Source: an uncultured virus (IMG/VR IMGVR_UViG_3300021093_000053)
Lineage: Duplodnaviria > Heunggongvirae > Uroviricota > Caudoviricetes
Length of the DNA: 64,000 nucleotides
Reading direction: 5' to 3' (one strand)
Virus record (IMG/VR): IMGVR_UViG_3300021093_000053
The notes below the pieces were generated by a model. It was not told where the DNA came from, made no database searches, and saw only the letters and a program-made list of their open reading frames with translations. Below are positions 2,573 through 34,669 of the stretch, piece by piece. The number at the start of each line of letters is the position of its first letter. Positions within the stretch are counted from its first letter, which is position 1. The position numbers and the translations under genes are program-made.

Positions 2573-2575
2573 TAC

Positions 2576-2583
2576 TATATTTG
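2576..2583 (+). promoter_or_regulatory. Bacteroidota -7 promoter element (TATATTTG), 4 nt before the ATG at 2588
   Basis: Exact TAnnTTTG match directly upstream of the start codon. Confidence 0.5.
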
Positions 2584-2587
2584 CAAC

Positions 2588-3640
2588 ATGTTAGAATTGT
2601 TGAACAAATATTACGAGGATGGGTTGGTGACAAAACAAGTTCATCCAACTCTTCCTTTGTCTATATGGAACTACACCCCAAAAGTACAATATGGTCTTTT
2701 ATATAATCAATACGCTTTATGGGATGAGGTAACTACTCAAGCAAGAGGTTTAGTTGTTGATGAAAATAGTAACGTTGTTGCAAGACCATTTAAAAAATTT
2801 TTTAATATAGAAGAAAAAAGATTCACACCAACTAAAGAATTTGATGTGTATGAAAAAATGGATGGTTCTTTAGGTATATTATTTAACTATGAAGGTGAAT
2901 GGATATTTGCATCTAAAGGTTCTTTTACTTCAGACCAATCAGCCGAATTCAAAAAAATATTTGATGAAAAATATTCGACTAATTTATTAGACTTTTCTTG
3001 TACTTATTTGTTTGAAATATTATATCCTGAAAATAGAATAGTGGTTAACTATGGTGATTTAAGAGATGTGGTATTATTAGGTAAAATAGTAACTGAGTCT
3101 GGTGAAGAACTTGACGTGGAATCATATCGGAATAACTTTAATGTTGTTAAAAAATATGATGGAATAACTGATTACACTTTTTTGAAAAAAATGGTTGCCG
3201 ATAACCATGAAGGTTTTATAGTAAAATTTTTTAATGGAAATAGAATAAAAGTGAAAGGAGAAGAATATCTTCGATTACATAAAATAATGACTAACATATC
3301 AACTACTTCTGTTTGGGAAGTTTTAAGTAATCAAGGAGATATAGGTGAATTATTAAATGATGTTCCTGATGAATTTTATGATAAGATAAAATCTTATGAA
3401 AAGGATTTAAAATACCATTTTCATCAAATAAATGAGTATTGTGGTAAACTACATGATGGTTTTAGATATGGTAAGTATGGTGATGTTGACCCTGAACCAA
3501 CTAAAAAAGAATTTGCAGAATTTGTTATGAGAAATGTAACAAAAACTGGTTTACGTCCTGTACTATTTGCTATGTGGGATAAAAAACCATATGACTACAT
3601 AATATGGAGATTATTAAAACCTGAGTTTAGAAAACTATAA
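2588..3640 (+). CDS. T4 Rnl1 (RnlA)-like RNA ligase
   Basis: ARGLV...VARPFKKFFN; motif I YEKMDGSLG; ASKGSFTS; FEILYPENRIVV; EGFIV; KVKGEEY. Confidence 0.88.
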   Translation: MLELLNKYYEDGLVTKQVHPTLPLSIWNYTPKVQYGLLYNQYALWDEVTTQARGLVVDENSNVVARPFKKFFNIEEKRFTPTKEFDVYEKMDGSLGILFNYEGEWIFASKGSFTSDQSAEFKKIFDEKYSTNLLDFSCTYLFEILYPENRIVVNYGDLRDVVLLGKIVTESGEELDVESYRNNFNVVKKYDGITDYTFLKKMVADNHEGFIVKFFNGNRIKVKGEEYLRLHKIMTNISTTSVWEVLSNQGDIGELLNDVPDEFYDKIKSYEKDLKYHFHQINEYCGKLHDGFRYGKYGDVDPEPTKKEFAEFVMRNVTKTGLRPVLFAMWDKKPYDYIIWRLLKPEFRKL

Positions 3641-4335: not shown

Positions 4336-5544
4336 ATGATAATTTATATTTTAGAAGGACCACAATTAGTAGATACTTCAAAGTACACAGGTATTAATTT
4401 TAAAGATAGAGTAGTTGGTAGTAGTACACCATCTAAAGACAAAATTAATCCATCTTTATTAGCTGATGTTGACAAAGCTGCAATAATCGCGGGCACCAAA
4501 GCAAGTGTTACAACTGCGGTTACAGGGCACAGACCTGGGTCAAGACACAATCCTGGAGGTTTGGCGGTTGATTTGGCGATGTTTGATGGTAAGGGTTATG
4601 GTAGTAAAGAGGATGCTAAAAAGAAAGGTATATATGATAAAATAGAAAAATTTGTCAAAGCCTTAGAAAGTATGGGTTATAAGGTAAATTCAGAAAGGGG
4701 GAATGACAAGGCTGTTTTATGGTTTGGTTTTCCTAATCACCATCATCATGTTCATGTCTCAAGACTATCGGATGATGGAACCTCAACTTCATCTTCATCC
4801 TCATCAGAAGATTCTGATAACAATTCCGATGATAGTAGTGAAACTACAAAAACAACAACCTCACCACCTCCAACAGACAGTAAACCAAAGGGTTTGGATT
4901 TCAACACCCTTGGGTTGATTAGTGCTTTAGGTAGATTATCCGAAAACAAAAAAAATAAAAACATGGGTAGATTATTAAATGAAATAGAAAAAATTAATAG
5001 GATTAATAAAGTAGTTATTTCCGAAGGTGCTTTACAAGTTTCTTATCCTAAGATTGTTTTTACACCGTCTGAATCAAATTTCCAAAATACAAATAAAAAT
5101 CTTTTAACTGATTTAAATTCAATTGGGTCTGAAAAAAATATTACGGTAAATATAACTGGCAGTACTCCCGATTCTGTATATGTAATTTTAAATGATGTTA
5201 TAAAAAGTAAATTAACTGAAAAAGGATACGGAGGCGGTAAAACTCAAAACCCTAATAAATATTATATGGATTATAATGGGTCAATTTACGTGTTTAATAA
5301 CACAGTTACTTCACAAACTACGGATTCGGCAACAACCACAACAACAACTAAATCATCAACGAGCTCAACAACTAATACAACAACTTTAAAAATAGATACT
5401 AGTAGTGCTCAAACGGCTGCCGATTCATTAATTGATTCTGTATTAAGTGGTTTTGTGGCACCATTCGCAACTTCTGAAAGTGTTGGTAATAAAAAAGAAA
5501 AACTTCTAAATGAGATTAATCGTATTAAAAAAAATATGATATAA
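4336..5544 (+). CDS. M15-type Zn peptidase domain protein with Ser/Thr-rich linkers
   Basis: SRHNPGGLAVDL and HHHHVHVS match the SxH..G.A.D / HxH signature of M15-like peptidases. Confidence 0.7.
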   Translation: MIIYILEGPQLVDTSKYTGINFKDRVVGSSTPSKDKINPSLLADVDKAAIIAGTKASVTTAVTGHRPGSRHNPGGLAVDLAMFDGKGYGSKEDAKKKGIYDKIEKFVKALESMGYKVNSERGNDKAVLWFGFPNHHHHVHVSRLSDDGTSTSSSSSSEDSDNNSDDSSETTKTTTSPPPTDSKPKGLDFNTLGLISALGRLSENKKNKNMGRLLNEIEKINRINKVVISEGALQVSYPKIVFTPSESNFQNTNKNLLTDLNSIGSEKNITVNITGSTPDSVYVILNDVIKSKLTEKGYGGGKTQNPNKYYMDYNGSIYVFNNTVTSQTTDSATTTTTTKSSTSSTTNTTTLKIDTSSAQTAADSLIDSVLSGFVAPFATSESVGNKKEKLLNEINRIKKNMI

Positions 5545-7284: not shown

Positions 7285-7821
7285 ATGAAATATACAATTT
7301 ACAAAATTACAAATACGTTAAATAACAAAATTTACATAGGTAAGCACCAAACAGAAAATATTAATGATAGTTATTTTGGTTCTGGTGTTTTATTAGAGAA
7401 AGCAATAAAGAAATACGGTAAAAAATTTTTCACTAAAGAAATTTTGTTCATATTCAATACCGAGAATGAAATGGATTTAAAAGAACGAGAGATAGTTACC
7501 GAAGAATTCATTAAAAGGAAAGATACATATAATAAATCCTTGGGGGGTGAAGGAGGTTCTAATTTCAAAGGAAAAAAACATACTAATGAAACTAAACAAA
7601 AATTATCAGATATTAGTAAAGGTAGAATTTTTTCTGAAGAAACAAGAAATAAAATTTCTGAAGGAAATAGAAAAAGAGTTCTTAGTGAAAGTACAAAACT
7701 AAAACTTTCCGAAAAGGCGAAATTAAGATTTCAAAATGAAGAAACGAGAAAAAAACATTCTGAAATAATGAAACAGTATTATACAAAAAATATCGTGGTG
7801 GTTTCCAGCTCGGTCTCATAA
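7285..7821 (+). CDS. GIY-YIG homing endonuclease (Seg-like) with NUMOD3-type repeats
   Basis: TIYKITNTLNNKIYIGKH...YFGSG..L..AIKKYG; YN...GG; KGKKHTNETKQKLS / SEETRNKIS repeats. Confidence 0.9.
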   Translation: MKYTIYKITNTLNNKIYIGKHQTENINDSYFGSGVLLEKAIKKYGKKFFTKEILFIFNTENEMDLKEREIVTEEFIKRKDTYNKSLGGEGGSNFKGKKHTNETKQKLSDISKGRIFSEETRNKISEGNRKRVLSESTKLKLSEKAKLRFQNEETRKKHSEIMKQYYTKNIVVVSSSVS

Positions 7822-8362: not shown

Positions 8363-10576
8363 ATGAGAAATATTTTAGCACTTTTAACCTACCTAATTAG
8401 TTTTGTCGGTTTCGGACAATACTGTCCATATTTAGGTCCTGACCAATTATTACCTTGCGGGTCCAACTCAACAACACTTACCGCGGACTTAACCCAATGT
8501 GGAGTTGGGGGTATTAATCCAAATCAAACAACAAATTATAATGTAACAAATATACCTTACGTTGCTCAAGTAAATAACGGTACTAATTTAACAATGACCG
8601 ATGATTCCCAACAGGGTCCGTTTAATATAGGTTTTAATTTTTGTTTTTTTGGTACGACGTATACTCAATTTTGGATAGGGTCTAACGGATGGATATCTTT
8701 TTCGCCAAACCAACCAACAACATTTACTTCTCAATCAATACCAACAACTAATGGCTTAGTACCAAAAAATTGTATAATGGGTCCTTGGCAAGATTGGCAC
8801 CCTGGAATTGGTGGTCAAATAAAATACCAAGTTCAAGGAGTTGCACCTTGTCGTAAATTAATTGTTAGTTGGGTTAATATGCCAATGTATTCATGTACTT
8901 CTAATCTTGGTACGTTTCACATTATAATTTATGAAACAACTAATATCATAGAAAATCACATTCAAAGTAAACCTGCATGTCTACAATGGCAAAATGGAAC
9001 TTCTGTTGAGGGTATCCATAATTTAGCAGGTACAATTGGGATAACAGTACCAGGAAGAAACTCAACCGCTTGGGTTGCACAAAATGATTCTTGGAGATGG
9101 ACACCTTCAGGACCTGTAGTGACTCCGACATTAACTTGGTATCAGGTTGGTAATCCTATACCAATAGGGACGGGTCCATCAATAACGGTTAACCCACCTG
9201 CCGCGGGAGCGAGTTACACCTGTCATTTTGTATATCCGACATGTAATGCAGGATGGGTAACATGTAATGGTTCACTTGGTTTAGGTCCTGATACTGTATT
9301 AGTTGTTCCTGGTCCACCTAATTTACCTTTACCAACCATAATATCTAATGAACCAACTTGTAACGGGTATTGTGATGGTAGTCTTATAATAACTCCGAAT
9401 GGAGGTAATGGAGCTCAAACAATTTCATGGAATGGACCCCAATCTGGATTCAATCCAAACAACCTATGTTCAGGGAATTATGTTTTTACTTTAACAGATG
9501 CTTTAGGGTGTACAATAACAAGTAACGTTACATTAATGGACCCTCCACCACTAATTATAAACCCTATTGTTGGTGAGGATACTATATGTATTAATTCTAT
9601 TAGTGATTTTTATAACACAACAAATTTAATTACGGGTTTAAATTATGTTTGGTCAACAACCAACGGAATTATTAATAACGGACAAGGAACAAATCAGATT
9701 ACTGTTGACGTTAATGGTACCCAATCAGGTTTTTACAATAACATGATAACTGTATACGGTATTGACGGAAACGGATGTCAGTCTCAAACAGAACTAATCG
9801 ATATAACTATTTTTAATCTTACACCTTTTATAAATCCTGTCGGTCCATTCTGTTCTTATGACGAATTTGTTACTTTAGAATCATCACCTATTGGTGGTTA
9901 TTATACAGGAAATGGTGTTATAAATAATGATTTTTTTCCCATAAATGCGGTTGGTAATAATCTTATAACGTATACTTACACACAAAGTGGATGTTTGTTT
10001 ACAACAACCGAGACAATTATTGTTTACCCACAACCGATAATTGAAACCTTAACACCGTCAAACCCATTTTTTGAAGTTTGTATGGGAGATTCGGTTAACA
10101 TCAATTTTGAATTGACATCAAATCCTCAAGGAATTAATCAATGGTCATTTATTGATAGTATTTATAATACCCAAGCATACAATCAAACTTTTAGTAGTGA
10201 AGGAACTTATATAATTTCAGTTACCACAACAACAAACGGATGTATTTCTAACCCAGAACAAACTACAGTTATTATTGACGAATGCCCTGAAGAGTTGATA
10301 TATATACCAAACTCATTCACACCTGATGGAGATGAACATAACAATATATGGAAACCTGTATTTACATCAGGACTTGACCCATATGATTTTAGAATGGAAA
10401 TCTATAATAGATGGGGAGAATTAATATGGGTTAGTGAAAACCCTTTAGTTGGGTGGGACGGTACTTTTAATGGTAACTACTGTCAAGACGGTGTCTACTT
10501 ATGGAAGTTAGAATTTGGTATACCCGAAAATGACGGAAGAAAAAAAATGTTTGGACATTTAACAACTTTTAGATAA
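8363..10576 (+). CDS. Secreted T9SS cargo protein with gliding-motility-associated (type B) C-terminal domain
   Basis: Signal peptide ending FG|Q; Ig/PKD/SprB-like repeats; C-terminal YIPNSFTPDGD..N..W...YNRWGE...GWDGT...GVY...GHLTTFR. Confidence 0.9.
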   Translation: MRNILALLTYLISFVGFGQYCPYLGPDQLLPCGSNSTTLTADLTQCGVGGINPNQTTNYNVTNIPYVAQVNNGTNLTMTDDSQQGPFNIGFNFCFFGTTYTQFWIGSNGWISFSPNQPTTFTSQSIPTTNGLVPKNCIMGPWQDWHPGIGGQIKYQVQGVAPCRKLIVSWVNMPMYSCTSNLGTFHIIIYETTNIIENHIQSKPACLQWQNGTSVEGIHNLAGTIGITVPGRNSTAWVAQNDSWRWTPSGPVVTPTLTWYQVGNPIPIGTGPSITVNPPAAGASYTCHFVYPTCNAGWVTCNGSLGLGPDTVLVVPGPPNLPLPTIISNEPTCNGYCDGSLIITPNGGNGAQTISWNGPQSGFNPNNLCSGNYVFTLTDALGCTITSNVTLMDPPPLIINPIVGEDTICINSISDFYNTTNLITGLNYVWSTTNGIINNGQGTNQITVDVNGTQSGFYNNMITVYGIDGNGCQSQTELIDITIFNLTPFINPVGPFCSYDEFVTLESSPIGGYYTGNGVINNDFFPINAVGNNLITYTYTQSGCLFTTTETIIVYPQPIIETLTPSNPFFEVCMGDSVNINFELTSNPQGINQWSFIDSIYNTQAYNQTFSSEGTYIISVTTTTNGCISNPEQTTVIIDECPEELIYIPNSFTPDGDEHNNIWKPVFTSGLDPYDFRMEIYNRWGELIWVSENPLVGWDGTFNGNYCQDGVYLWKLEFGIPENDGRKKMFGHLTTFR

Positions 10577-15979: not shown

Positions 15980-15991
15980 TATTTATGGGTA

Positions 15992-18331
15992 ATGAGCAAT
16001 TTACAATCTATCTTAAAAAGTTTTAATTTAAAAGACAATCTTAACCCAAAGATATGGGTTAATCCAAAATCTTCAAATACAAAAATGGTCCCTAAAGTTA
16101 GAGAGACCCTGTTAGAGATTGCTAATGATTTTATAGAATTTTTAGATGTTGATATTATAGTGTCTGATGTTGTAATGACAGGTTCATTGGCCAATTATAA
16201 TTGGTCTAACTATTCTGATGTCGACATCCACATAATTGTTGATTTTAGTCAATTTCCTGAAAATGTAAAAACTTTATACGAAGAGTTGTTCTACTTAAAA
16301 AAAGCAATTTACGGTAATAAACAAAATATTAAAATTTTTGGGTATGACGTTGAGCTTTATGTTGAGGATGAGAATATTGAAAAGGATGTAAAGAACATTG
16401 CAATCTACTCAATATTATATGATGAATGGAAAAGTTCACCTAAAAAAGATTTAGTTAATATTAATAAAACCAATGTAACTGAAAAAGCTAAACAATGGAT
16501 GAGAATAATCGATGGTGTTGCGGAAAACATACAAGACGAGGATATTGACACCGCAAAATCATTAATCAAAAAATACGTTAATAAAATCAGAAAATATAGA
16601 GAATGTGGTTTAGAGTCTGGTGGGGAATATTCTGATGAAAATCTTGTATTTAAAATATTGAGAAGAAATGGTTACCTTGAGAAAATTAAAAGTATGAAAA
16701 ATAAATTGGTCGATAAAAGATTATCCTTAAAAGAAGCGACGACAACCATCGGTGGTAAATTTAAAGTAGACATTGAAAATGGTCCATCTAACCATGGTAA
16801 ACGAGCCTTTGGTAATTGGCAATCGGATAATGCTTGGGATATATTCGCCCCTGCAGGTACTGTGGTTAATTCATATACTGAAGGTACCGTAATAAAAATA
16901 AGGGACACAGGTAAAAATTCAGGTAAAGTATTTGGTACACAAGTCTCAATAACAGGGACTAATGGATATCCTGATATTTTTTATACTCACCTGAAGAATG
17001 TAAAATTACAAAAGGGCGATAAAGTTAAAGTGGGTGATGTTATTGGGCTTATATCTGAATGGGTCGGTCATGATAATATGACTCACGTTCATATTGGATT
17101 ACCAAGAGGAAAACATTTAAGAGATTTATTAAAGAATTCAGATAAAATATTTGTTGGTTCTGCAGGTGGAAGTGGAAAAACTGTTCCACCACCATCAGAC
17201 GATTCTTTACCATTAAAAAGAGATAGTGAGATAGATAAAAAAATAGTAGATTCTGCAAATGAATTGATTAAAGATAATTCTGAGTTTGCTAATACTAAAA
17301 AAGAAAATGTTATCACAACTTTAGAAAATGCCGAAGAAGGAAAAAATAAAATTTTAAGTGAGTTTTATAAATTAGTACAATCTAAAAAAGAACTCAAAAA
17401 TCTTAAAGGTGTTGAATCAACAATCCCTGTTGACAGAGGAGTTGAATTACTTCAAATAGCACTACAGTTTTTAGGGTTCCTATTACCTAAATGGGGTGTT
17501 GATGGTAAATTTGGAAATGAAACTGAAATAGCGGTTAAAGACTTCCAAAAGAAATACAAATTGGATGGGGATGGAACTATGTCAAGTGAAGACTTAACAA
17601 AATTATTTTCCATTTTAGTTTTAAAAGATTTTAACGATTCTAATATGTCATCAATTGAAAAAGATGAAGACCCAAATTTAACAAATGATTCTAAAGTGAT
17701 GGGGAATGTTAAAATAGTTGGTAGTTATAATAGTTCACAAAAAAATATTATTTCATCATTAATTGATGAAATGAAAAGAGTGGGTATTACTGATTCTTAC
17801 GCTCAAATAGGTATTTTATCGGTTATTGACAAAGAGAGTAATTTTAAAAGTTTTAAAGAAGTTGGTTATTGTGGGACTTCAGATAGTAGAATTGTTAGTA
17901 TCTTTGGTAACAAAAGAGGTAACATGTGTAAATCTCTTAAATGTAATGACGCGAAATTTTTTGATTGTCTTTACGGATATAAATCAGGTTTAAGTTTAGG
18001 AAACGACCAACCTGGTGATGGATGGAAATATGTTGGTAGAGGTCTTAATGGTCTTACAGGTAAAGCAAATTATCGTAAATACGGTGGAATGGTTGGAGTG
18101 GATTTAGTATCTAATCCTGAGTTAATGGAAGACCCTAAAATTGCTGCTAAAGTTGCAATTACATATTTTACTAAAGGTAAATCAGCAAGTTCTCTCCCTA
18201 AATTTAAATCAAAAGAAGATTCAGTTAACTACTTTGCGGATTTAAATGCTGGTAGGAGGAACTCTTCATTTGGTAGAGGTGCTGCAATTGTGTCATCTAA
18301 AAAATTTGACGTAGATAATAATATCACCTAA
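15992..18331 (+). CDS. Fusion protein: Pol-beta-like nucleotidyltransferase + M23 peptidase-like + peptidoglycan-binding domain + GH19-like lysozyme
   Basis: TGSLANYNWSNYSDVDIH (GS..DxD); AWDIFAPAGT..YTHL..HVHIG; LQIALQFLG..VDGKFG.ET..AVKDFQ; DGWKYVGRG...LTGKANY...PEL. Confidence 0.85.
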   Translation: MSNLQSILKSFNLKDNLNPKIWVNPKSSNTKMVPKVRETLLEIANDFIEFLDVDIIVSDVVMTGSLANYNWSNYSDVDIHIIVDFSQFPENVKTLYEELFYLKKAIYGNKQNIKIFGYDVELYVEDENIEKDVKNIAIYSILYDEWKSSPKKDLVNINKTNVTEKAKQWMRIIDGVAENIQDEDIDTAKSLIKKYVNKIRKYRECGLESGGEYSDENLVFKILRRNGYLEKIKSMKNKLVDKRLSLKEATTTIGGKFKVDIENGPSNHGKRAFGNWQSDNAWDIFAPAGTVVNSYTEGTVIKIRDTGKNSGKVFGTQVSITGTNGYPDIFYTHLKNVKLQKGDKVKVGDVIGLISEWVGHDNMTHVHIGLPRGKHLRDLLKNSDKIFVGSAGGSGKTVPPPSDDSLPLKRDSEIDKKIVDSANELIKDNSEFANTKKENVITTLENAEEGKNKILSEFYKLVQSKKELKNLKGVESTIPVDRGVELLQIALQFLGFLLPKWGVDGKFGNETEIAVKDFQKKYKLDGDGTMSSEDLTKLFSILVLKDFNDSNMSSIEKDEDPNLTNDSKVMGNVKIVGSYNSSQKNIISSLIDEMKRVGITDSYAQIGILSVIDKESNFKSFKEVGYCGTSDSRIVSIFGNKRGNMCKSLKCNDAKFFDCLYGYKSGLSLGNDQPGDGWKYVGRGLNGLTGKANYRKYGGMVGVDLVSNPELMEDPKIAAKVAITYFTKGKSASSLPKFKSKEDSVNYFADLNAGRRNSSFGRGAAIVSSKKFDVDNNIT

Positions 18332-18398
18332 ATAAATCGATAATTAAGTTAAACGATATATTTATAAATAAAATAATTTAAACAAAAACAAAAATAAA

Positions 18399-19754
18399 AT
18401 GGGAAATTTGAGACCAATTGGTAGTGAAAAACTACAAGGAATGGACAAAATAAATCGTATTTTACAAATAGCGAAATATAATGAGCATATCCCAACTCCA
18501 ATCAATGAGAATAAATCTTTGGAGTATCAAAAAACATTATCAGATGGTAATACATATGTTATTGTAAAGGAGAATAATGGTTACATAATTAAAAAGGGGT
18601 TGAATGAATCGGTTGCTGATTATATGGAATCAATGAAAGATAGAAAATACTACCCATCATATTCTCAAGCTCTTAAGAGATTAAACATTATGGCCAAGGA
18701 AATTAATTCTTCTGAAGGTTATATTAAAAATATTTCTTTATTTGAAAGTGAGGATGATGTGGAAGAAAAATATTTTCTTAAGTTAGATGGTGGTGAAACT
18801 AATGAACAGGATGTTCCCGCTCCTGCTCCTGCACCCGCACCCGCTCCTGCACCCGCTCCTGCACCCGCTCCTGAAGCACCTGTAGATGCTGATATGGGAG
18901 GTGCTGATATGCCAGATGAAGAACCTGAAGATGACATGGATATGCCAGATGAAGAACCTGAAGATGATGAAGATGTTACGTTTAAAATGATTCAAAAACT
19001 AACAGGTAAATTGGCTCAAAAAATTAGAACTTTTATGGAAGACGAAGAAAATGAAATGTCTTCTAAAGATATTAAATATGTAATTAACTCCGTAGTTTCC
19101 GCAATTGATTTAGATTCATTAGAAGATGACGATTTAGATGAAATTATTTCTAAATTAGAAGGTGAAGAAGAAGGTGAAGAAGAAGGTGAAGAAGAAGGTG
19201 AAGAAGGTGGTGAACCAATGCCGTCACCTGAAATGCCGTCACCTGAAGTGGCTCCCGCACCTCCAGCGGCACCTGCGACGGGTGAAGTTGCCGAGTATGA
19301 TGACTTAGACGATGGTAAAGAATTTGTTGATGATATTTTTAGTGAAGAGGAAGATTATGAAAATTACGGTAAAAATCGTGGTTATAGAGGTAAGAAACAC
19401 AGGTTTACAGAACTTGGAGAAGATGAGTCAGGTGCGGTAGAAGGAATGATTGAAGGTTTATTTAGTGAGTCTAAAGTCGACAACATTTTGAAAAAATATT
19501 TTAGAGTTGATGAAAAGGAGAGAGTTATCTTAGAAGAAAAGAAAAAACAAAAAAGTGTTTTAGCTGAAAAAACAAATAAAAATATTGTTAGGATTAAAAA
19601 TTTATCTGAGACAGTTGCTCAAGAGATATCATCAAGTAAGTTAATTAAAAAATACCCAAATTTAAAGTTTGTTGGAAAGTCACAACAAAATAATTTAATA
19701 TTTGAGAATAATAGTAGAAGAATTAAAGTAACTCCTAAAGGAAGTATTTTATGA
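18399..19754 (+). CDS. Acidic low-complexity protein, possible prohead core/internal head protein
   Basis: 451-aa ORF with PA, DMPDEEPEDD and EGEE repeats, upstream of the head module. Confidence 0.6.
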   Translation: MGNLRPIGSEKLQGMDKINRILQIAKYNEHIPTPINENKSLEYQKTLSDGNTYVIVKENNGYIIKKGLNESVADYMESMKDRKYYPSYSQALKRLNIMAKEINSSEGYIKNISLFESEDDVEEKYFLKLDGGETNEQDVPAPAPAPAPAPAPAPAPAPEAPVDADMGGADMPDEEPEDDMDMPDEEPEDDEDVTFKMIQKLTGKLAQKIRTFMEDEENEMSSKDIKYVINSVVSAIDLDSLEDDDLDEIISKLEGEEEGEEEGEEEGEEGGEPMPSPEMPSPEVAPAPPAAPATGEVAEYDDLDDGKEFVDDIFSEEEDYENYGKNRGYRGKKHRFTELGEDESGAVEGMIEGLFSESKVDNILKKYFRVDEKERVILEEKKKQKSVLAEKTNKNIVRIKNLSETVAQEISSSKLIKKYPNLKFVGKSQQNNLIFENNSRRIKVTPKGSIL

Positions 19755-20161
19755 GTTATTTAATTTATGTAAATGAATTAGGTGCAAATTATAAAGGGGA
19801 AACAACTTATGAATTCATTTTCTCCGATAATTTGGAAAATGTATGGGGAGATTCTTGGGAATCAAAACCATCGAATGGTTACCCATCTCCACCCGATTTA
19901 GATTACATAGAAAAAGTTGGAGTTTTGAAGACAGATAAGACAACATTATCAGTTATTCAAAACTCTGATTACTTTTCAATGGTTGACGCAATTGATAGAG
20001 TTATAGCGTTGGCGTGGGAAGATGAAAACGAAACAACCAATTTTGACTTAGTTAAAAGATTGGTATTTAGTTTTGGTCAAACTGAAGACTCCGTAAAAGA
20101 TAAATTATATGAACGAGATTTCGTTCTTGAATTTGAGAAGAAAGTGGTTTATGAAAAATAA
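19751..20161 (+). CDS. Hypothetical protein
   Basis: 136-aa ORF with ATGA overlap with the previous gene. Confidence 0.8.
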   Translation: MSYLIYVNELGANYKGETTYEFIFSDNLENVWGDSWESKPSNGYPSPPDLDYIEKVGVLKTDKTTLSVIQNSDYFSMVDAIDRVIALAWEDENETTNFDLVKRLVFSFGQTEDSVKDKLYERDFVLEFEKKVVYEK

Positions 20162-21137
20162 TAAAAAAATACTATCTTTGTTAAACCATGGGTTTAAAGG
20201 TTCGTTACTTAATACGCTAAACGAAGCTCAAATCAATTCAATGTATAGTAGATTAGTTGAAAATAAAAAAGAAACTAAAGAACAACAAATTGTAAACACT
20301 CAAACAATGGTTTTTGATTCTTCTAAAGAAGACCAAAAGGCTAAATTAAATCAAATGTTAAAAGACCCTTCTAAATTACAAGGTCAAAACATAGAAGTTA
20401 AAGAAGATGAAGAATCAGATATTAATTGGGGATTAACAGGTCATGACCAAGAACCAATTCAAAAAGGACCTACAGGTGACGGGGACCCAAATTCAATCCA
20501 AGAGAAAGAATTAATGGAAAAATTCGTATCTAAAAAACAACAAAAATATTTTTTTGCGAAATGTGGTGATGGAAAAACAAAAGAAGAAAAAAAATGGTGT
20601 AAAATGGCTGAAGAATTTGCGGAAAAAACAAATTTTAAAAAACTACCTAAAACTAAAAAGAAAGAAACCAAAGAAGAATTCACCATGAAAAATTATTTGG
20701 ATAAAGTGGGTAGTGCTTATGCAAATAACATGAAAGGACAATTAAGTAAAATGGCAAAAGAAAGTATCAATAAAAAAGAGTTAGAAAAAGGTATTATGTC
20801 TTTGGTTGAAAAACATATTACACCTAAAATGAGTAAAAGGGATTTACTAAATTTGGTTTTTGAACAAGGAACTAAAGAAAAGGAGAGAACTAAGGAAAAA
20901 GAAAAAACTAAAAGCCCTGAACGTGATAATCCGTATGCTCCTAAACCTGGACCAAAGAAAAGTCCAAAAGCGGGAGATACCAAGATTGCACCTCCAATAC
21001 CTAAAACACCTACAAAACCTGGTAAACCTGATACAAATACCCCATATAACCCTAAAGTTAAACCCGCACCAAAAGCTGACAAGGGAAAACTACCTAATTG
21101 GTTGACATTTGATGCTATTGGAATTAATCTAAAATAA
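20151..21137 (+). CDS. Hypothetical Lys/Pro-rich protein
   Basis: ORF 20109..21137; ATG20151 (MKNNKK) preferred for the short overlap. Confidence 0.75.
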   Translation: MKNNKKILSLLNHGFKGSLLNTLNEAQINSMYSRLVENKKETKEQQIVNTQTMVFDSSKEDQKAKLNQMLKDPSKLQGQNIEVKEDEESDINWGLTGHDQEPIQKGPTGDGDPNSIQEKELMEKFVSKKQQKYFFAKCGDGKTKEEKKWCKMAEEFAEKTNFKKLPKTKKKETKEEFTMKNYLDKVGSAYANNMKGQLSKMAKESINKKELEKGIMSLVEKHITPKMSKRDLLNLVFEQGTKEKERTKEKEKTKSPERDNPYAPKPGPKKSPKAGDTKIAPPIPKTPTKPGKPDTNTPYNPKVKPAPKADKGKLPNWLTFDAIGINLK

Positions 21138-21138
21138 G

Positions 21139-22482
21139 ATGAGTGTTAATTATAAAATGGAAAAAATATTAAGAGCAAAAACTAATTTAGAAAAAAAATT
21201 AGTTAGAGAAGGTTTAACTTATAATGAGAAATCATTATTAAATGAAATCAAAAAAAGTTTAACTGAGGCACCCATAGATTATGAAGGTCCTGAAAGAATG
21301 GGTCAGGATGTTGAGAGAAAAATAACACAGAGAGAGACTCCATTTCATGGTCACCCCGCAATACCTCAAGAACAAAGAGATTTTATCGAGGTGATTGCAT
21401 CAAAAAGATTTAAAGACTCAGTTGATAAAGTAAGAAGATTTTTAGGTAATACCCAACCTCTACAAGGACCAAACTCTTTTATGAACTTGATGATGATGGG
21501 TATGCAATCATTACAACAAATTTCATCTATTGAATCAAGAAATAAACAAAGACTTGAAGAATTAGCGGTTGAGTTGGTTAAAAAAGAAATGGGGATTCCT
21601 GAAGGAGCTTTACAATTCGACGCCGAATTAGTTAGTGGACCTATGAGTGCCGCTCAAGGGATGCAAACCCAATCACAAAATCCTTCTGAAGATGAGATTA
21701 AAGATGCTTTTAAAGAAGGTGAAGAACATACCGAAGATTTATTAAACTTTGTAGATGAGTTCGAAAAATTCAATTTAGAGAAAGCAAAAAGACGATTTAT
21801 AAATTCTTTAATACAAGGTGCGGCGTTCAAGGGTGGACACATGTATGTCTTGGCGGCTGATGAAATAAACAATATTGACCCAAGATTATTACAGATGTAT
21901 GGTGTTAACCAATCATTAATGGAACATCTATATTGGGTTTTCCCTGATATGGAAAATATGGCGGGTTCGGGAGGTGGACAATTAGGTCAAAGTGAAATTG
22001 ATGATGAGACCGACCCACCAACAGTAAAGGCTAGGGCAGGTACTTTTCCGTTATTAATTCATGAATTGGTAAAAGGTGTTTATGAAGTATTTGGTACTCA
22101 CGGATTACCTGATGACCCAAGACAACAAGAAATGGTTATGGGTTCTGAAGATACATTACCTGCTGAGATTTGGGATTCAAGATTAGGACCTATTTTTTGG
22201 GAAAAATTTGTTGCGACATACCCGATAGAATTATTCGAGGATGATATGAAACACATCCAACATTATCTATTTATGAGATTTTCTAAATTAGATGCGAATG
22301 AATTCTTTAGAGTTGCCAAACTTATATTACAAGGAGACCCTAAAGGACAACAATTCATTCAAAGGATGGTTGATGAAATAGTTTCAGAATTAAAAAAACA
22401 AGAATATGAAAGAAGTATGAATCAATATGACGATGACGATGATGATTATGACGATATCGACCTTTCACAATTAGGATTATAA
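21139..22482 (+). CDS. Hypothetical protein upstream of terminase
   Basis: 447-aa ORF followed by a terminator-like inverted repeat at 22502-22534. Confidence 0.8.
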   Translation: MSVNYKMEKILRAKTNLEKKLVREGLTYNEKSLLNEIKKSLTEAPIDYEGPERMGQDVERKITQRETPFHGHPAIPQEQRDFIEVIASKRFKDSVDKVRRFLGNTQPLQGPNSFMNLMMMGMQSLQQISSIESRNKQRLEELAVELVKKEMGIPEGALQFDAELVSGPMSAAQGMQTQSQNPSEDEIKDAFKEGEEHTEDLLNFVDEFEKFNLEKAKRRFINSLIQGAAFKGGHMYVLAADEINNIDPRLLQMYGVNQSLMEHLYWVFPDMENMAGSGGGQLGQSEIDDETDPPTVKARAGTFPLLIHELVKGVYEVFGTHGLPDDPRQQEMVMGSEDTLPAEIWDSRLGPIFWEKFVATYPIELFEDDMKHIQHYLFMRFSKLDANEFFRVAKLILQGDPKGQQFIQRMVDEIVSELKKQEYERSMNQYDDDDDDYDDIDLSQLGL

Positions 22483-22557
22483 AATACAAAACAACAAAAA
22501 TAAACCCTCATTTATTAAATTAAGTGAGGGTTTTAATATTTATAGTAAAATAGTTTT

Positions 22558-24333
22558 ATGAGTTTAACAAAAGAACAACTTCTTTTAGAGTATGTTAAGT
22601 GTATGAGAGATACTCCATACGCATTAAGAACCTATTTGCAAACATATGACAATACAGTATCAAAATATGTACCGTTAGAATTATTTCCAGACCAAGTAAC
22701 ATTACTTGAAGACTATGAGCAGTATAACGAAAATATCGCATTAAAGTACAGACAGGCAGGTGTATCAACAGTTACAGGTGCTTGGATTTCTAAAAAATTA
22801 GTTTTTGCTAAAAAAGAAAAACCTGAAAAGATTCTTATTATCGCTAACAAATTGGACACTTCTATTGAAATGGCAAATAAAATTAGAATGTTCGTTAGCC
22901 AATGGCCGTCTTGGACGGGTGTTGACATTGACCCTAATAAAAAATCAACTAAACATTACAAATTAACCAATGGGTGTGAGGTTAAGGCGGTTGCAACATC
23001 TAAAGACGCCTTACGAGGATTTACACCTACTGTACTTGTATTTGATGAGGCGGCTTTTATCGAAGCGGACAGTGATTTTTGGGCGGCTTGTATGGCCTCA
23101 TTATCTACGGGAGGTAAAGTAATCGTAGTTTCCACACCTAACGGATACGACCCAATCTATTATGAAATTTATGACCAATCATTACGTAACATGAACGATT
23201 TTAAGATTACTGAAATGTATTGGTTTAGAGACCCAAGATATACCAAAGATTTATTCTTTATTAAAACTGAAAGTATAATACACTACTTATTAAATAAAGA
23301 AGAATATAATGAATCTGATTTTATAAAGTGGGAAGAAAAACCTTTTGAGAATAGGGATTATAAAGAAGTAAAAGAGTTAATGAATCAAGGTTATAAACCA
23401 TGTTCTACTTGGTTTGAGAACATGGTCAAAAAACTTAAGTATGATAAGAGAAAAGTATCTCAAGAGTTAGAATGTAACTTTTTAGGTTCGGGTGATAACG
23501 TATTCGATTCTTTAATGTTACAAAAAATTAAAGAGAATTCTATTAAACCCCCGACAAACAAAATGATGGGTAATGCTTTATGGATATGGAAAGAACCCAT
23601 TGTAGGTCACAAATATGTTATGGGAGTTGATGTATCAAGAGGAGATAGTGAAGATTTTAGTTGTTTCCAAATCATTGATTTTGATAATAGAGAACAAGTT
23701 GCAGAATACGTTGGTAAATTACCTCCTGACACAATGGCTGAGATATGTTATAAATGGGCCAACATGTATTCTTGTTTTGTGGTGATTGATATTACAGGTG
23801 GTATGGGTGTTTCTACCGCAAGGAAAATGCAAGAAATGGGTTATAAAAATTTATACGTTGATGGTATTGATGTTTCTAATAAATGGAAGTATGACCCTAA
23901 AGCATTAGAAAAAATCCCTGGAATAAATTTTAATAATAAACGTGTACAGATAATTGCTTCATTTGAGGAGGTAATGAGACATGAGTTTAAAATATACAGT
24001 TCCCGTTTATTTAACGAGATGAATACATTTGTATATATTAACGGAAGACCTGACCACCAAAAAGGTCATCACGATGACCTTATTATGGGTATTGCCATGG
24101 CAACCTATGTTGCTGAATCGTCATTTAGTAATTTAACAAAAGTAACTGAACATACTAAAGCAATGATTGATTCATGGTCGGTTAGTAATAATGAAAATGT
24201 ATCACAACAAATAGCGTTTAATCCCGTGATACCGCATTACAATGAAAGAATATCACAATTTAATTCAGGTCATATACCAAGAGAAGAATATATGAAACAC
24301 GCTTGGTTATTTGGTGGTAGACAATATTTATAA
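22558..24333 (+). CDS. Terminase large subunit (T4 gp17-like)
   Basis: LKYRQAGVST Walker A variant, VFDEAAF Walker B, VSTPNG motif III, QELEC, RNase H-like GVDVSRG and HDDLIM. Confidence 0.95.
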   Translation: MSLTKEQLLLEYVKCMRDTPYALRTYLQTYDNTVSKYVPLELFPDQVTLLEDYEQYNENIALKYRQAGVSTVTGAWISKKLVFAKKEKPEKILIIANKLDTSIEMANKIRMFVSQWPSWTGVDIDPNKKSTKHYKLTNGCEVKAVATSKDALRGFTPTVLVFDEAAFIEADSDFWAACMASLSTGGKVIVVSTPNGYDPIYYEIYDQSLRNMNDFKITEMYWFRDPRYTKDLFFIKTESIIHYLLNKEEYNESDFIKWEEKPFENRDYKEVKELMNQGYKPCSTWFENMVKKLKYDKRKVSQELECNFLGSGDNVFDSLMLQKIKENSIKPPTNKMMGNALWIWKEPIVGHKYVMGVDVSRGDSEDFSCFQIIDFDNREQVAEYVGKLPPDTMAEICYKWANMYSCFVVIDITGGMGVSTARKMQEMGYKNLYVDGIDVSNKWKYDPKALEKIPGINFNNKRVQIIASFEEVMRHEFKIYSSRLFNEMNTFVYINGRPDHQKGHHDDLIMGIAMATYVAESSFSNLTKVTEHTKAMIDSWSVSNNENVSQQIAFNPVIPHYNERISQFNSGHIPREEYMKHAWLFGGRQYL

Positions 24334-24495: not shown

Positions 24496-24533
24496 CTATT
24501 TATATTACTTCTGTTTGTGATTAAATTAATTAT

Positions 24534-26342
24534 ATGGAAAATAATAACAATAATCTAACGGTTTGGCAAAGGTTGTCCCATGCACTCGGACCCAATGCCT
24601 TATTGAATCAAGATTACCCAACGTACAAATTTGATAAAAAAGATTTATTAAAAACTACTTCAAAACAAGAATACGATAGAGAGTTATTACAAGCTCAACA
24701 AACTATGTATTTGTCGGGTCAATGGACCAAGATTGAAAGTAACTTATATACTCAGGCGGTCTATTACGAACCAACAAGGTTAGCATCATTTTATGATTAT
24801 GAATCTATGGAATACACTCCTGAGATTTCAGCCGCGTTAGATATATACGGTGAAGAATCAACAACTGTTGACCAAAATGGTTATATGTTACAAATTTATT
24901 CGGAATCTAAACGTATTAAAGGAATATTAGCCGATTTATTTAACAATGTGTTAGATATTAATACTAATTTACCAATGTGGACAAGAAACACATGTAAATA
25001 TGGTGATAATTTTGTTTACTTAAAATTAGATTCAGAAAAAGGTGTGGTTGGTTGTATGCAATTACCAAATATCGAAATTGAAAGACTAGAGAGAGGTATG
25101 CCTGCACAAGCAACAAGACAGAATATTGAGGAGCCTGCAGAGAATAAAGGTCTTAGATTTAAATGGAAAATTAAAGACATGGAATTTAATGCTTGGGAGA
25201 TAGCACATTTTAGATTGTTAGGTGACGATAGAAAACTTCCATACGGAACATCTATGTTAGAAAAGGCAAGACGTATTTGGAAACAATTATTATTATCTGA
25301 AGACGCTATGTTAATTTATAGAACATCAAGAGCGCCTGAAAGAAGAGTATTTAAAGTTTTTGTCGGTAATATGGATGACAAAGACGTTGAGGCATACGTA
25401 CAAAGAGTTGCCAATAAATTTAAAAGAAATCAAATAGTAGATGACAAAACAGGTAATGTTGATTTAAGATTTAATCAGATGGCCGTAGACCAAGATTATT
25501 TTATTCCTGTTCGTGACCCTGCACAAGCATCACCTATTGACACTTTACCTGGGGCTCAAAATTTAGCTGAAATTGCTGATATTGAATATATTCAGAAAAA
25601 ATTATTAACCGCATTACGAGTACCTAAAGCGTTTTTAGGATTTGAAGAACCTGTTGGTGAAGGTAAAAATTTATCGTTACAAGATATTCGTTTTGCAAGA
25701 ACTATTAATAGAATACAAAAATGTATGATTGCAGAATTAAATAAAATTGCGATTATACATTTATTTCTGTTAGGTTTTGAAGATGAGTTAGGTAATTTTA
25801 CATTAGGATTAACTAACCCATCAACACAAGCTGATTTATTAAAAGTTGACGTTTGGAAAGAAAAAATATTATTATATAAAGACGCAGTAACCGCAATAGA
25901 AGGTATTGCTCCTGTATCAGTTTCATGGGCCAAAAAACATATTTTAGGTTTCTCAGATGAAGAAATAAAACTTGATTTACAACAACAAAGAATTGAAAAG
26001 GCCGTTGGTGCTGAATTAACTAATACTGCAACAATTATAAGTCACACAGGTTTATTTGATAATGTTGATAAACTTTATGGTTCCAAGTCAGGTGATACTG
26101 CGGGAGGAGGGGCCGCCCCACCACCTCCAGGCGGGGGGGATATGGGAGCACCTACACCACCTCCTGGACCTGAACCTGGCGGTGATGCGGGAGTAACCCC
26201 TGAATCATTAAATAGAGATAATTTAAAAATATTACTAGAATCTGATTCTTTAACTGACGATGGTTCCTACATAGATTTATCCAAAGCGAAAAATTCTTTG
26301 GGTGAAATTGAGGATAGATTGAATAAACTTTTAGGTGATTGA
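24534..26342 (+). CDS. Portal protein (T4 gp20-like)
   Basis: MEYTPEISAALD, EDAMLIYRTSRAPERRVF, DYFIP, IDTLPGAQN, ALRVPK. Confidence 0.95.
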   Translation: MENNNNNLTVWQRLSHALGPNALLNQDYPTYKFDKKDLLKTTSKQEYDRELLQAQQTMYLSGQWTKIESNLYTQAVYYEPTRLASFYDYESMEYTPEISAALDIYGEESTTVDQNGYMLQIYSESKRIKGILADLFNNVLDINTNLPMWTRNTCKYGDNFVYLKLDSEKGVVGCMQLPNIEIERLERGMPAQATRQNIEEPAENKGLRFKWKIKDMEFNAWEIAHFRLLGDDRKLPYGTSMLEKARRIWKQLLLSEDAMLIYRTSRAPERRVFKVFVGNMDDKDVEAYVQRVANKFKRNQIVDDKTGNVDLRFNQMAVDQDYFIPVRDPAQASPIDTLPGAQNLAEIADIEYIQKKLLTALRVPKAFLGFEEPVGEGKNLSLQDIRFARTINRIQKCMIAELNKIAIIHLFLLGFEDELGNFTLGLTNPSTQADLLKVDVWKEKILLYKDAVTAIEGIAPVSVSWAKKHILGFSDEEIKLDLQQQRIEKAVGAELTNTATIISHTGLFDNVDKLYGSKSGDTAGGGAAPPPPGGGDMGAPTPPPGPEPGGDAGVTPESLNRDNLKILLESDSLTDDGSYIDLSKAKNSLGEIEDRLNKLLGD

Positions 26343-27811: not shown

Positions 27812-27847
27812 ACTCAAATACTTCAATATTTATAATTAAAATTGACA

Positions 27848-28573
27848 ATGAGTTTACAAATAATACAACCAGGCCAAGTAGGTAAAGGAATTCTTATCGA
27901 ATATGACGCAGGATTTATTAATCCTAAAGATAAGTATAATTCTGAACTAATCAGAGAATCCAAAAATTTCATGGACCATACAAAACCTTTTGAATTTTAT
28001 GCAGTATTACAAAAATATAATACACCAAATAGGAACGGTAGAATTTACCCTGAAAGGATTTTAAAAAGAGAAGCTGATAATTACAAAAAAATGATTGAAA
28101 AGGGGACATCATTATCTGAATTGAATCACCCTGAATCTTCTCTTATAGACTTAGATAGAGTATCTCATATTATAACTGATGTATGGTGGGATGGACCAAT
28201 ATTAATGGGTAAATTAAAATTACTTACAAGCCCAGGATTTCATGAAAGAGGTGTGTGTTCCACAAAAGGTGATTTAGCGGCAAACTATTTAAGACAAGGG
28301 GTAACTCTTGGTATTTCTTCTCGTGGGGTAGGTTCATTAAAAAAGGTTGGGGAACAAAATGAAGTGCAGGATGATTTTGAATTGATTTGTTTTGATTTAG
28401 TTTCGTCACCATCAACACCTGGGGCTTATTTATTTTTAAATCCTGAAGACAAAAATAATTTCGAGGAAAATCTTGATGAGGAGAAAAAAATGTCAATTGA
28501 AAGAAATGTTGGACAGTCAGGAAATAAATCACTTGACTTAATGAGAAAGTTATCCGATTATTTAGGATACTAA
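27848..28573 (+). CDS. Prohead core protease (T4 gp21-like)
   Basis: NRNGRIYP, ELNHP, LGISSRGVGS, DLVSSPSTPGA. Confidence 0.95.
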   Translation: MSLQIIQPGQVGKGILIEYDAGFINPKDKYNSELIRESKNFMDHTKPFEFYAVLQKYNTPNRNGRIYPERILKREADNYKKMIEKGTSLSELNHPESSLIDLDRVSHIITDVWWDGPILMGKLKLLTSPGFHERGVCSTKGDLAANYLRQGVTLGISSRGVGSLKKVGEQNEVQDDFELICFDLVSSPSTPGAYLFLNPEDKNNFEENLDEEKKMSIERNVGQSGNKSLDLMRKLSDYLGY

Positions 28574-33084: not shown

Positions 33085-33172
33085 AGTGGGGAAACCCACT
33101 TTTCTTTTTAGATAATGAATTCTAAATGTTTTTTTTTAACTAATAAGATATTTATTTATAAACAATGTAATT

Positions 33173-34213: not shown

Positions 34214-34669
34214 ATGAAAAGATTAATTATAACTGAAGAAGAAAAAAGAAGTATTCTTTTAAAACACGGTAGTAAATCATTTTTAAATGAGGCTGCTAAA
34301 GACGATATTATGGCAATACAAAAATCTTTAGGTTTAACTGCGGATGGTGTGGCAGGACCTAAAACAATCTCATCTATTATCGCAAAATTAGGTGGAGGTT
34401 CATCAGCGGCGGCGACCAATAAAACCGCAACACCTACGACACCTGCAACACCAACAACCCCTACTACACCTACTACACCAACAACCCCTACTACACCTAC
34501 TACACCAACAACCCCTACTACACCTACTACACCTGCCGCGGCTACCACTACAACATTCTCAGCGGCACCTGTTGCGGGGGCAACAACTTTAGAACAAGCT
34601 TGTGGTACAAGAAAAACTAATAAAGACTATAGACTTTGTAAAAAAGTATTTAACAAAACTACCAAATAA
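34214..34669 (+). CDS. Peptidoglycan-binding domain protein with (TTP)n tract
   Basis: IQKSLGLTADGVAGPKT; 27-nt tandem repeats at about 34430-34535. Confidence 0.75.
   Translation: MKRLIITEEEKRSILLKHGSKSFLNEAAKDDIMAIQKSLGLTADGVAGPKTISSIIAKLGGGSSAAATNKTATPTTPATPTTPTTPTTPTTPTTPTTPTTPTTPTTPAAATTTTFSAAPVAGATTLEQACGTRKTNKDYRLCKKVFNKTTK

Follow-up and report, generated by a model that had tools for sequence, protein, structure and literature searches.

A phage nucleotidyltransferase with a swappable peptidoglycan-degrading tail, possibly delivered in the virion after cleavage by the prohead protease

Why should a phage place a nucleotidyltransferase (NTase), an enzyme that needs nucleoside triphosphates (NTPs) and must therefore act in the cytoplasm, on the same chain as three modules directed at the cell wall? 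The question is raised by an open reading frame (ORF) at positions 15992..18331 of IMGVR_UViG_3300021093_000053, a 64,000-nucleotide stretch (hereafter the window) from an uncultured virus. An earlier note, made from the sequence alone, had described its product as a possible virion-packaged effector polyprotein that a protease would cleave. We found that the best explanation suggested by the sequence is a two-part "polyvalent" protein of a T4-like jumbo phage, apparently consisting of a constant NTase of the Pol-beta superfamily and a swappable peptidoglycan-degrading tail. That this protein is delivered in the virion and processed by the prohead protease is the single most likely reading, although at somewhat less than an even chance; packaging, cleavage, ejection and substrate are what we infer.

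A real and recurrent fusion

The ORF lies on the + strand exactly where the earlier note had placed it, and comprises the following parts.

15992..18331, + strand: whole ORF of 779 amino acids (aa), 87 kDa, ATG start; NTase, M23-like domain, spacer with PG_binding_1, GH19-like domain
15992..16723, + strand: NTase module of the Pol-beta superfamily, aa 1-244; core about aa 22-153, helical bundle aa 154-244
16181..16225, + strand: catalytic motifs G64-S65 and D76-x-D78, from an alignment of 241 homologues
16352..16354, + strand: third carboxylate E121, present in 241/241 homologues
16727..16735, + strand: L246-K247-E248, then A249; candidate prohead-protease site in a low-confidence linker (aa 245-250) at the domain joint
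16742..17152, + strand: divergent M23 metallopeptidase, aa 251-387, from Pfam, conservation and model
17225..17383, + strand: helical spacer, aa 412-464, from the full-length model
17426..17653, + strand: PG_binding_1 peptidoglycan-binding module, about aa 479-554
17708..18319, + strand: GH19-type lysozyme/endolysin module with GRG..LTG..NY, aa 573-776

All four domains named in the earlier note were recovered. Expressed in bits against the curated Pfam cut-off, the matches were NTP_transf_2 (PF01909) at aa 53-136 (21.3 against 21, marginal), Peptidase_M23 at aa 280-371 (43.9 against 28.7), PG_binding_1 at aa 483-533 (41.1 against 23) and Glyco_hydro_19 at aa 676-728 (24.7 against 25.5, slightly below the cut-off), the last being supported by a match to the solved structure 4ok7 (E 3.4e-12). 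Among the PHROGs, phrog_36119, which has no assigned function, matches aa 11-246 (E 5.9e-38), phrog_181 "endolysin" matches aa 434-729 (E 1.3e-30) and phrog_3201 "tail fiber protein" matches aa 561-738. A full-length model, made from an input of 62 sequences, reached a predicted local distance difference test score (pLDDT) of 79.7 and a predicted template-modelling score (pTM) of 0.37, and the linkers at aa 245-250, 388-397, 473-476 and 559-571 fell below a pLDDT of 50. Given this pTM and these disordered linkers, no fixed packing between the domains is predicted, and the chain reads as beads on a string. We found no export signal or transmembrane segment in the 779 residues, the top 19-residue hydropathy being 1.36.

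An assembly or sequencing artefact that joined two genes can be given practically no weight. A 100% identical gene is present in three IMG/VR contigs, and at least 22 lake-water metagenome runs contain 97-100% of the window's sampled words. In 4/4 runs examined (two of which may be the window's own source) contigs span the joint between the NTase and the M23-like domain with 0 differences, no indels and no contig joints. The contigs of these four runs contain no tail-less variant, from which its absence cannot be concluded because contigs drop rare variants. Furthermore, the N-domain is matched by 416 protein clusters that carry C-terminal cargo (428-1364 aa, E<=0.001), hundreds of fused homologues in all. 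The fusion of the NTase with wall modules is real and recurrent.

The NTase keeps its active site

The alignment of 241 homologues shows that G64, S65, D76 and E121 are invariant (241/241) and that D78 is kept in 240. The motif "GS..DVD" pointed out in the earlier note corresponds to G64-S65 and D76-V77-D78, the hG[GS] motif and following [DE]h[DE]h strand by which the Pol-beta superfamily is recognised, and E121 lies on model strand 118-126, as expected of the third carboxylate. AlphaFold2 gave for aa 1-260, from 45 sequences, an alpha/beta NTase core with a helical bundle (pLDDT 91.1, pTM 0.81). A modelled NTase fold and the catalytic aspartates D76 and D78 are thus both found in the N-domain, and the earlier proposal had been made to depend on both.

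The structural neighbours of the core found by Foldseek and VIA are all NTases (CdnE, AAD(9), TENT5) and all weak, with Foldseek TM values of 0.2-0.27. The top Foldseek match, CdnE 6wt9, has an E of 5.4e-5, yet a TM of 0.23 and a root-mean-square deviation of 18 A. AAD(9) 6sxj follows at E 1.5e-3, with ANT(6) and AadA also among the best matches, and VIA aligns TENT5/FAM46 to the core with Z 6.9 over 120 residues. In a wide VIA-align search with the N-domain, generic helical-bundle matches to aa 154-251 drowned out most else, and only TENT5 and 1ylq were informative matches to the core. AMPylating enzymes appear as weak matches only, the DrrA domain 3nku at E 0.0038 over about 80 residues (sequence profile against PDB) and the DrrA/GlnE-type 6yx5 at E 0.039 (Foldseek). 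The ESM Atlas returned unnamed viral NTase clusters only, at 0.87, BFVD returned uncharacterised family members only, and Pfam at E<=1 gave no NTase family beyond NTP_transf_2 and Polbeta. As to an RlaP-type context, the two RNA ligase genes of the window are 12-14 kb away from the fusion, on its upstream side, and do not adjoin it. Collectively, the alignment and the model establish the predicted NTase fold and catalytic apparatus, and the weak structural matches do not single out a subfamily.

Judged by sequence, the family is restricted to phages among the matches examined, with 3936 cluster representatives at E<=0.001 and 1087 at E<=1e-30. The stand-alone form is the commoner one, with 2650 clusters of 30-427 aa (typically about 250 aa) against 416 longer ones. 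GenBank holds 45 phage records with the N-domain, from Lak megaphages, Synechococcus myoviruses, the Maribacter phages Molly and Colly and Caulobacter phage Cr30; these NTases have 240-265 aa and sit among early or replication genes, and one homologue is labelled "aminoglycoside nucleotidyltransferase". Two distant branches hint at a function on RNA ends, as far as domain matches can tell. In L081:6456-8717 (754 aa) the NTase module is C-terminal and is preceded by a sub-threshold Tpt1/KptA RNA 2'-phosphotransferase (E 5e-4), and P0339 couples the NTase to a 2H phosphoesterase.

The wall-directed modules

In the M23-like domain D283, H333, H365 and H367 are kept in 55/55 sequences. The position of the first zinc-motif His is D279 in 49/55 and His in 5/55, and the domain therefore has a variant first ligand. 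Its best match of solved structure is gp28 of cyanopodophage A4 (9k2v_E, E 1.5e-6 over about 85 residues), and the scores of the staphylococcal M23 lysins (6yj1, LytM, lysostaphin) come close to it.

The GH19-like domain is closest to the SPN1S endolysin 4ok7, followed by 8p8e (E 2.2e-11), and plant GH19 chitinases match at E 1e-4 to 1e-3; E593 and E615 are what we take to be the catalytic pair. A protein of the Synechococcus phage BUCT-ZZ01, annotated as a gp5-like baseplate hub, contains a homologue of the stretch aa 508-763 (30% identity, E 6e-15). With homologues in an endolysin as well as in a baseplate hub, the GH19 and PG_binding_1 modules are common to endolysins and virion proteins.

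The tail is an accessory cassette

The gene occupies a syntenic slot that we could follow through 80 IMG/VR loci. The NTase gene carries wall modules there in 15 loci (L004-L017 and L020), and in the other 65 the slot holds mostly a stand-alone NTase, in a few cases with cargo that Pfam does not assign. A tree of 379 N-domain sequences, in which truncated gene calls may account for a few singleton "stand-alone" rows, requires at least 54 switches between stand-alone and C-terminal cargo forms (mean of 200 shuffles 120, minimum 105).

Among the best 150 representatives, 110 have 340 aa or more, and 85 of these were scanned for cargo with Pfam. A wall-directed domain was found in 31 of the 85, including 28 of the 33 closest, and seven kinds are represented (M23, PG_binding_1, GH19, Phage_lysozyme2, VanY, Amidase_2 and Glucosaminidase). 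The cargo of distant representatives comprises GNAT (3), NUDIX (1), ankyrin (1), MORN (1), 2H-phosphoesterase (1) and a second NTase (2), and about 45 of the 85 have no recognisable cargo domain. Furthermore, identities are mosaic: the NTase of L007 is 81% identical against 46% for its GH19 domain, and that of L017 59% against 72%. The frequent switches, the varied cargo and the mosaic identities indicate that the NTase is constant, with the tail as an accessory cassette that recombines. Homologous NTases thus do carry different cargo following LxE, a point that the earlier note had suggested checking.

The joint as a candidate cleavage site

The T4 prohead protease gp21 cleaves after L/I-X-E, and the first site to be described was a Glu-Ala bond, as related in passages of one source (PMC9026906). 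An Asp in the P1 position prevents processing in T4 (PMC9026906). A protease of this type is encoded in the window, as the earlier proposal needs, about 10 kb downstream of the fusion and within a T4-type head module.

22558-24333, + strand: large terminase (TerL), library match
24534-26342, + strand: gp20-type portal, library match
27842..28573, + strand: gp21-type prohead serine protease, Peptidase_S77 (PF03420 E 9.7e-23; phrog_207 E 1.4e-42), the proposed processing enzyme
30743-32623, + strand: gp23-type capsid protein of 626 aa, Pfam match

We located the proposed site, RLSLKE followed by ATT, at residues 243-251. Of the seven [LI]xE sites of the protein, the full-length model places LKE246-248 alone in a disordered linker (pLDDT below 50). 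Among fused forms, [LI]xE is found at the joint in 120/121, with S, A or G as the next residue in 116/121.

The same cargo also occurs without the NTase. The M23 module, and the cargo type of a second protein in the window, are found behind leaders of 7-26 residues that end in [LI]xE, which lends new support to the candidate processing site. A search with the M23-like domain gave 52 further proteins, 29 of them without NTase; among the 23 of these inspected, 4 are truncated calls that begin at a Met inside the last NTase helix, and 17 are genuine proteins of 252-413 aa with a 13-19-residue leader, whose [LI]xE stands 0-2 residues before the "(S/T)NIGG" start. Examples are MNRNQIVENLVRQILNEKE followed by TNIGG and MGSKRMNENNSKKIISE followed by GSTNIGG. 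The NTase is missing from 14 of 64 M23-bearing ORFs in IMG/VR, and in the lineages L140, L142 and L144 it stands alone in its usual slot, with the M23 lysin as a separate gene about five genes upstream. That upstream slot is occupied in the window by the second protein.

4336..5544, + strand: second cargo-type protein, 402 aa, with the 7-residue leader MIIYILE; domain 55% identical to the cargo of P0095

Residues 5-178 of this protein align with the cargo of the NTase fusion P0095 (55% identity, E 4e-56). The alignment begins at ILE followed by GPQ in the window protein (which starts with MIIYILE, then GPQ) and at IKE followed by APQ in P0095; P0051 and P0057, arranged like P0095, also carry this type of domain as NTase cargo. 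No Pfam family at E<=0.01 explains it and no PDB match was obtained. The domain contains "SRHNPGGLAVD ... HHHHVHV", by which it may be a LAS/M15-type zinc peptidase, and is followed by Ser/Thr-rich low complexity.

In contig L144, an N-terminal leader of 23 residues (11/23 identical, 20/23 similar, E 3e-4) is all that a 503-aa protein of no known family has in common with a 526-aa M23 lysin. The leader ends with LKE before A in one case and LIE before S in the other. By analogy, a leader that is shared by unrelated proteins and ends in L/I-x-E looks like a T4 capsid-targeting sequence. The 503-aa protein (L144:1011-2519) has relatives in L140, L141 and L143, forming a 419-503-aa family whose leader, "M.KEIL.EINR.REI.GL..L.E", is also found on the M23 lysins of these phages. 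A loose N-terminal pattern (M, 1-9 residues, a hydrophobic pair, x, E) matched 12 of 57 window ORFs against a background of 5-7%, and was discarded and not used as evidence because it matched TerL too. A C-terminal "RDxxIxxIL" tag is not present in the ORFs of the window.

A proposed pathway and its rivals

Under the reading that we favour, the protein would be incorporated in the prohead and the gp21-type protease would cut it once, after L246-K247-E248 in the flexible joint. The products would leave with the DNA at the next infection, when the wall modules would aid a local breach of the peptidoglycan and the NTase would alter a host or phage RNA, a protein or a small molecule at the onset of infection. 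This processed virion protein ranks first because the tail is accessory and often lost, because it combines a peptidase with a glycosidase, because of the [LI]xE leaders and because of the linkage to head genes. A more far-reaching hypothesis, which we regard as possible and rather doubtful, is that in T4-like jumbo phages of lakes the NTase is both a head-loaded, injected effector of the first minutes and a carrier of swappable wall hydrolases and other effector modules, the [LI]xE joint being a "leader-or-carrier" packaging code; we are just as tentative about its corollary, in which the prohead protease would free each cargo and the same joint would end shareable targeting leaders on the versions without NTase.

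Several observations weigh against a processed virion protein. The GH19 and PG_binding_1 modules would be just as much at home in an endolysin (SPN1S; phrog_181). All 45 phage records of the N-domain in GenBank are stand-alone, at less than 42% identity, and the stand-alone NTase of cultured cyanophages sits among replication genes, as fits a cytoplasmic, non-virion enzyme. LxE is kept in 100 of 120 close stand-alone homologues, which end 0-8 residues later, and "hS[LI]xE" closes the NTase domain in most distant subfamilies too; [LI]xE is ancestral to the last helix of the NTase, and its presence at the joint needs no protease. The protein has no [LI]xE before residue 40, the first being at aa 40-42 inside helix 34-51. 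The leaders of the NTase-less lysins could be what a deletion spared of the last NTase helix and are therefore not fully independent evidence, and a leader profile built from six sister-lineage seeds found only its seeds (next E 0.075), with nothing in the window. Lastly, a hydrolase from inside the head would have no evident route to the peptidoglycan, as head proteins of contractile-tailed phages pass through the tail tube.

The idea of a packaged and cleaved effector stands in part. Its domains, intact active site, protease gene, flexible linker and variable cargo all hold. The word "polyprotein" overstates the case, since only one cut is plausible, and it would leave the three wall modules joined to each other. 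A loading signal like that of T4 Alt is not seen either: in passages of PMC9026906, the T4 internal proteins and Alt are targeted by N-terminal propeptides of 7-19 residues that are themselves removed, and with no [LI]xE before residue 40 and an N-terminus within the fold, such a propeptide is absent here.

The earlier note had also argued that one chain makes little sense unless it is processed, which is wrong, as canonical endolysins remain in the cytoplasm until the holin acts. An endolysin fusion is indeed the main rival, clearly less probable than the processed virion protein and still to be taken seriously. It involves no packaging and no cut: the NTase would work in the cytoplasm, the same chain would leave through holin lesions and degrade the wall at lysis, and fusing the NTase to hydrolases would merely couple their expression. 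The lack of a signal peptide or transmembrane segment (maximum hydropathy 1.36) is as in holin-dependent endolysins, a PG_binding_1 with a catalytic domain is a common modular layout of Gram-negative endolysins, the GH19 part is nearest to the SPN1S endolysin and matches phrog_181, and LxE can be explained without a protease. The T4 lysozyme family (PF00959) was matched in 0/5 related contigs, each 31-68% complete, and the 64-kb window holds no other Pfam or PHROG lysin; at such completeness it is not established that the fusion is the only lysin. Nor does any small holin-like membrane protein lie beside the gene, although T4-like phages are not known to cluster lysis genes. Cargo that is so often gained and lost, with sister phages lacking it at the slot, would be odd for an essential endolysin, and an endolysin gives no rationale for repeatedly attaching wall hydrolases to an NTase and has no need of the [LI]xE-ended leaders that the same modules carry. 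Furthermore, a peptidase with a glycosidase is more typical of virion-associated hydrolases.

Two further rivals leave the lysis function aside. We consider it unlikely that the protein is a tail or baseplate entry lysin, a virion component outside the head that the prohead protease never sees and in which the NTase is an attachment domain or passenger. This would solve the topology problem of a contractile-tailed phage, and it agrees with the homology of aa 508-763 to the BUCT-ZZ01 gp5-like baseplate hub, with the Phage_lysozyme2 "tail lysozyme" cargo in the relatives P0250, P0256, P0260 and P0264, and with the phrog_3201 match. However, no tail or baseplate gene adjoins, the conserved block being one of TerL, portal and head genes; the NTase is mostly stand-alone with fully conserved catalytic residues, unlike a structural adaptor; and the [LI]xE-terminated leaders go unexplained. 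More improbable still is a coupling on the wall side, with the NTase acting on a wall-related small molecule or precursor (amino-sugar adenylylation, for example, as in aminoglycoside NTases) or regulating the hydrolases, and all domains forming one unit. Aminoglycoside adenylyltransferases do appear among the best Foldseek matches (6sxj, ANT(6), AadA) and in the GenBank label already mentioned, and distant relatives are fused to GNAT acetyltransferases. But these structural matches are all weak (TM 0.2-0.27), the full-length pTM of 0.37 predicts no fixed packing between domains, the NTase usually occurs alone, the cargo of other lineages is unrelated to the wall (NUDIX, 2H, ankyrin), and the periplasm has no NTPs.

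Relation to known systems

The concept matches, by analogy, the polyvalent proteins (PMC5512222) and the system of T4 Alt and internal proteins (PMC9026906). Like Alt and IPI-III, the NTase fusion belongs to a phage with a T4-type head module and an S77/gp21-family protease, has a host-acting enzyme fold and an L/I-x-E at an exposed position, and has related cargo with short [LI]xE-ended leaders, one of them common to unrelated proteins (compared with the passages covered of PMC9026906). Alt is an ADP-ribosyltransferase, whereas the enzyme here is a Pol-beta NTase. Unlike in the T4 proteins, there is no N-terminal propeptide, and the candidate cut is internal, between folded parts; the T4 internal proteins have no wall hydrolases, and for the NTase fusion packaging is a proposal.

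Polyvalent proteins of phages and conjugative elements unite disparate domains in one polypeptide, including peptidoglycan-attacking ones. Sections of PMC5512222 predict that they accompany the DNA into the host and propose that they are processed. The combination of NTase, peptidase and glycosidase in one phage polypeptide is of this kind. In contrast to them, the 779-aa protein has no MuF, zincin-like metallopeptidase or ADP-ribosyltransferase (ART) domain (Pfam, E<=1), and its processing would be by the prohead protease and not by a built-in peptidase. In the portions of that paper covered, "M23" has 0 occurrences and "nucleotidyltransferase" 2, and the NTase section concerns RelA/SpoT and GGDEF classes.

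The gp28 of cyanopodophage A4 (9K2V) is part of a capsid-internal pre-ejectosome, combines a lytic transglycosylase with M23 and is proposed to digest peptidoglycan (PMC12002296, in the passages covered). It is the best solved-sequence match to our M23-like domain (E 1.5e-6), but it comes from a podovirus, has no NTase and aligns over about 85 residues only. The SPN1S-type GH19 endolysins (4ok7) share the GRG..(L/I)TG..NY stretch, which here has PG_binding_1 upstream of it; they differ in having about 200-260 aa and one catalytic domain, with neither NTase nor M23. The stand-alone NTases (phrog_36119; S-CRM01 g125, Maribacter phage Molly gp26, Lak megaphages) share the fold family and catalytic residues; unlike the fusion they have about 240-265 aa, no cargo and a place among early or replication genes, and those of cultured cyanophages end at "...LSL", before the Glu. 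A jumbo-phage survey treats RlaP and CCA-adding NTases, and not this NTase family, in the passages covered (PMC7824862). No paper on this NTase family, or on lysin modules of the M23 or GH19 type joined to a Pol-beta NTase, came up in our literature search.

If the protein is packaged and cut, the paradigm of T4 Alt and internal proteins would extend to a new enzyme class, the Pol-beta NTases, wall hydrolases would be carried inside a myovirus-type head, and a simple portable rule of targeting and release would emerge, the [LI]xE-terminated leader or carrier. Such a rule, if true, could predict ejected proteins in uncultured jumbo phages and serve to load foreign proteins into capsids. Lak megaphages, cyanomyoviruses and flavobacterial phages probably have the activity of the NTase family as a common infection step. 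On a mundane reading, too, the locus is a clear natural case of rapid shuffling of lysin modules on a fixed enzymatic scaffold.

Genomic context and other features of the window

The source is an uncultured freshwater T4-like jumbo phage of roughly 300 kb, a size that follows from CheckV, which rates identical and related contigs of 97-203 kb as 31-68% complete. The window is AT-rich (about 30% G+C). A CHU_C type-IX-secretion sorting domain in the product of 8363-10576 points to a Bacteroidota host. A ClpB-like ATPase lies a short way upstream of the NTase fusion on the opposite strand and belongs to a block that is conserved down to 25-40% identity across the 80 IMG/VR loci: M20 peptidase, ClpB (- strand), a small ORF, KTSC, NTase, four ORFs, TerL and portal.

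The motif TATTTAT(A/T), found upstream of the fusion, also occurs 11-40 nucleotides upstream of the TerL, portal, protease, 18399 and 33173 genes, and TATTTAT(A/T/G) has 37 copies on the + strand of the window against 21 on the - strand.

15980..15987, + strand: TATTTATG, 12 nucleotides 5' of the ATG of ORF 15992-18331; promoter- or initiation-like candidate
22537-22544, 24497-24504, 27827-27834, 33153-33160, 18359-18366 and 15980-15987: copies of TATTTAT(A/T/G) upstream of + strand genes

Its positions make the motif a candidate for a promoter or initiation element peculiar to this lineage. The late promoter of T4, TATAAATA, was rejected as a candidate: it has 18 matches where 15.5 would be expected, which is no enrichment.

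Between the NTase fusion and TerL lie four conserved ORFs of no assigned function (18399-22482, + strand). Runs of (PA)n and (EEG)n occur in ORF 18399, Lys and Pro are abundant in ORF 20109, and ORF 21139 retains "(L/I)xE(A/M)P(I/M)D(Y/F)" down to 24% identity. These three have a conserved N-proximal [LI]xE, at residues 68-70 in ORF 18399 (40/43), 37-39 in ORF 20109 (17/18) and 41-43 in ORF 21139 (33/38); the sites sit in generally conserved stretches and would be compatible with processing, without being diagnostic of it.

The best gp23 Pfam stretch of the capsid protein covers aa 365-611; at 626 aa against a 376-position profile, its N-terminal part goes unexplained. Three small ORFs 3' of the capsid gene (33173-34192, 34214-34669 and 34672-35175, + strand) share the N-terminus "MKxL(I/Y)(I/F)(T/L)(N)EEEKxxILxLH", and in ORF 34214 PG_binding_1 is matched below the threshold (E 0.0011). 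On these similarities, the three may be further wall-binding virion proteins.

At 1487-3640 and 7285-7821 (+ strand) we found tandem RNA ligase genes and a GIY-YIG/NUMOD3 homing endonuclease; one ligase gene has PHA02142 OB and RNA_ligase domains and the other is of T4 Rnl1 type. At the other end, an ORF of more than 1419 aa (59744-64000, + strand, running off the window end) contains Pro/Thr/Asn repeats, "PTNTITPTNTVTPSNTV", and the GC skew around it is extreme, at -0.56 to -0.64.

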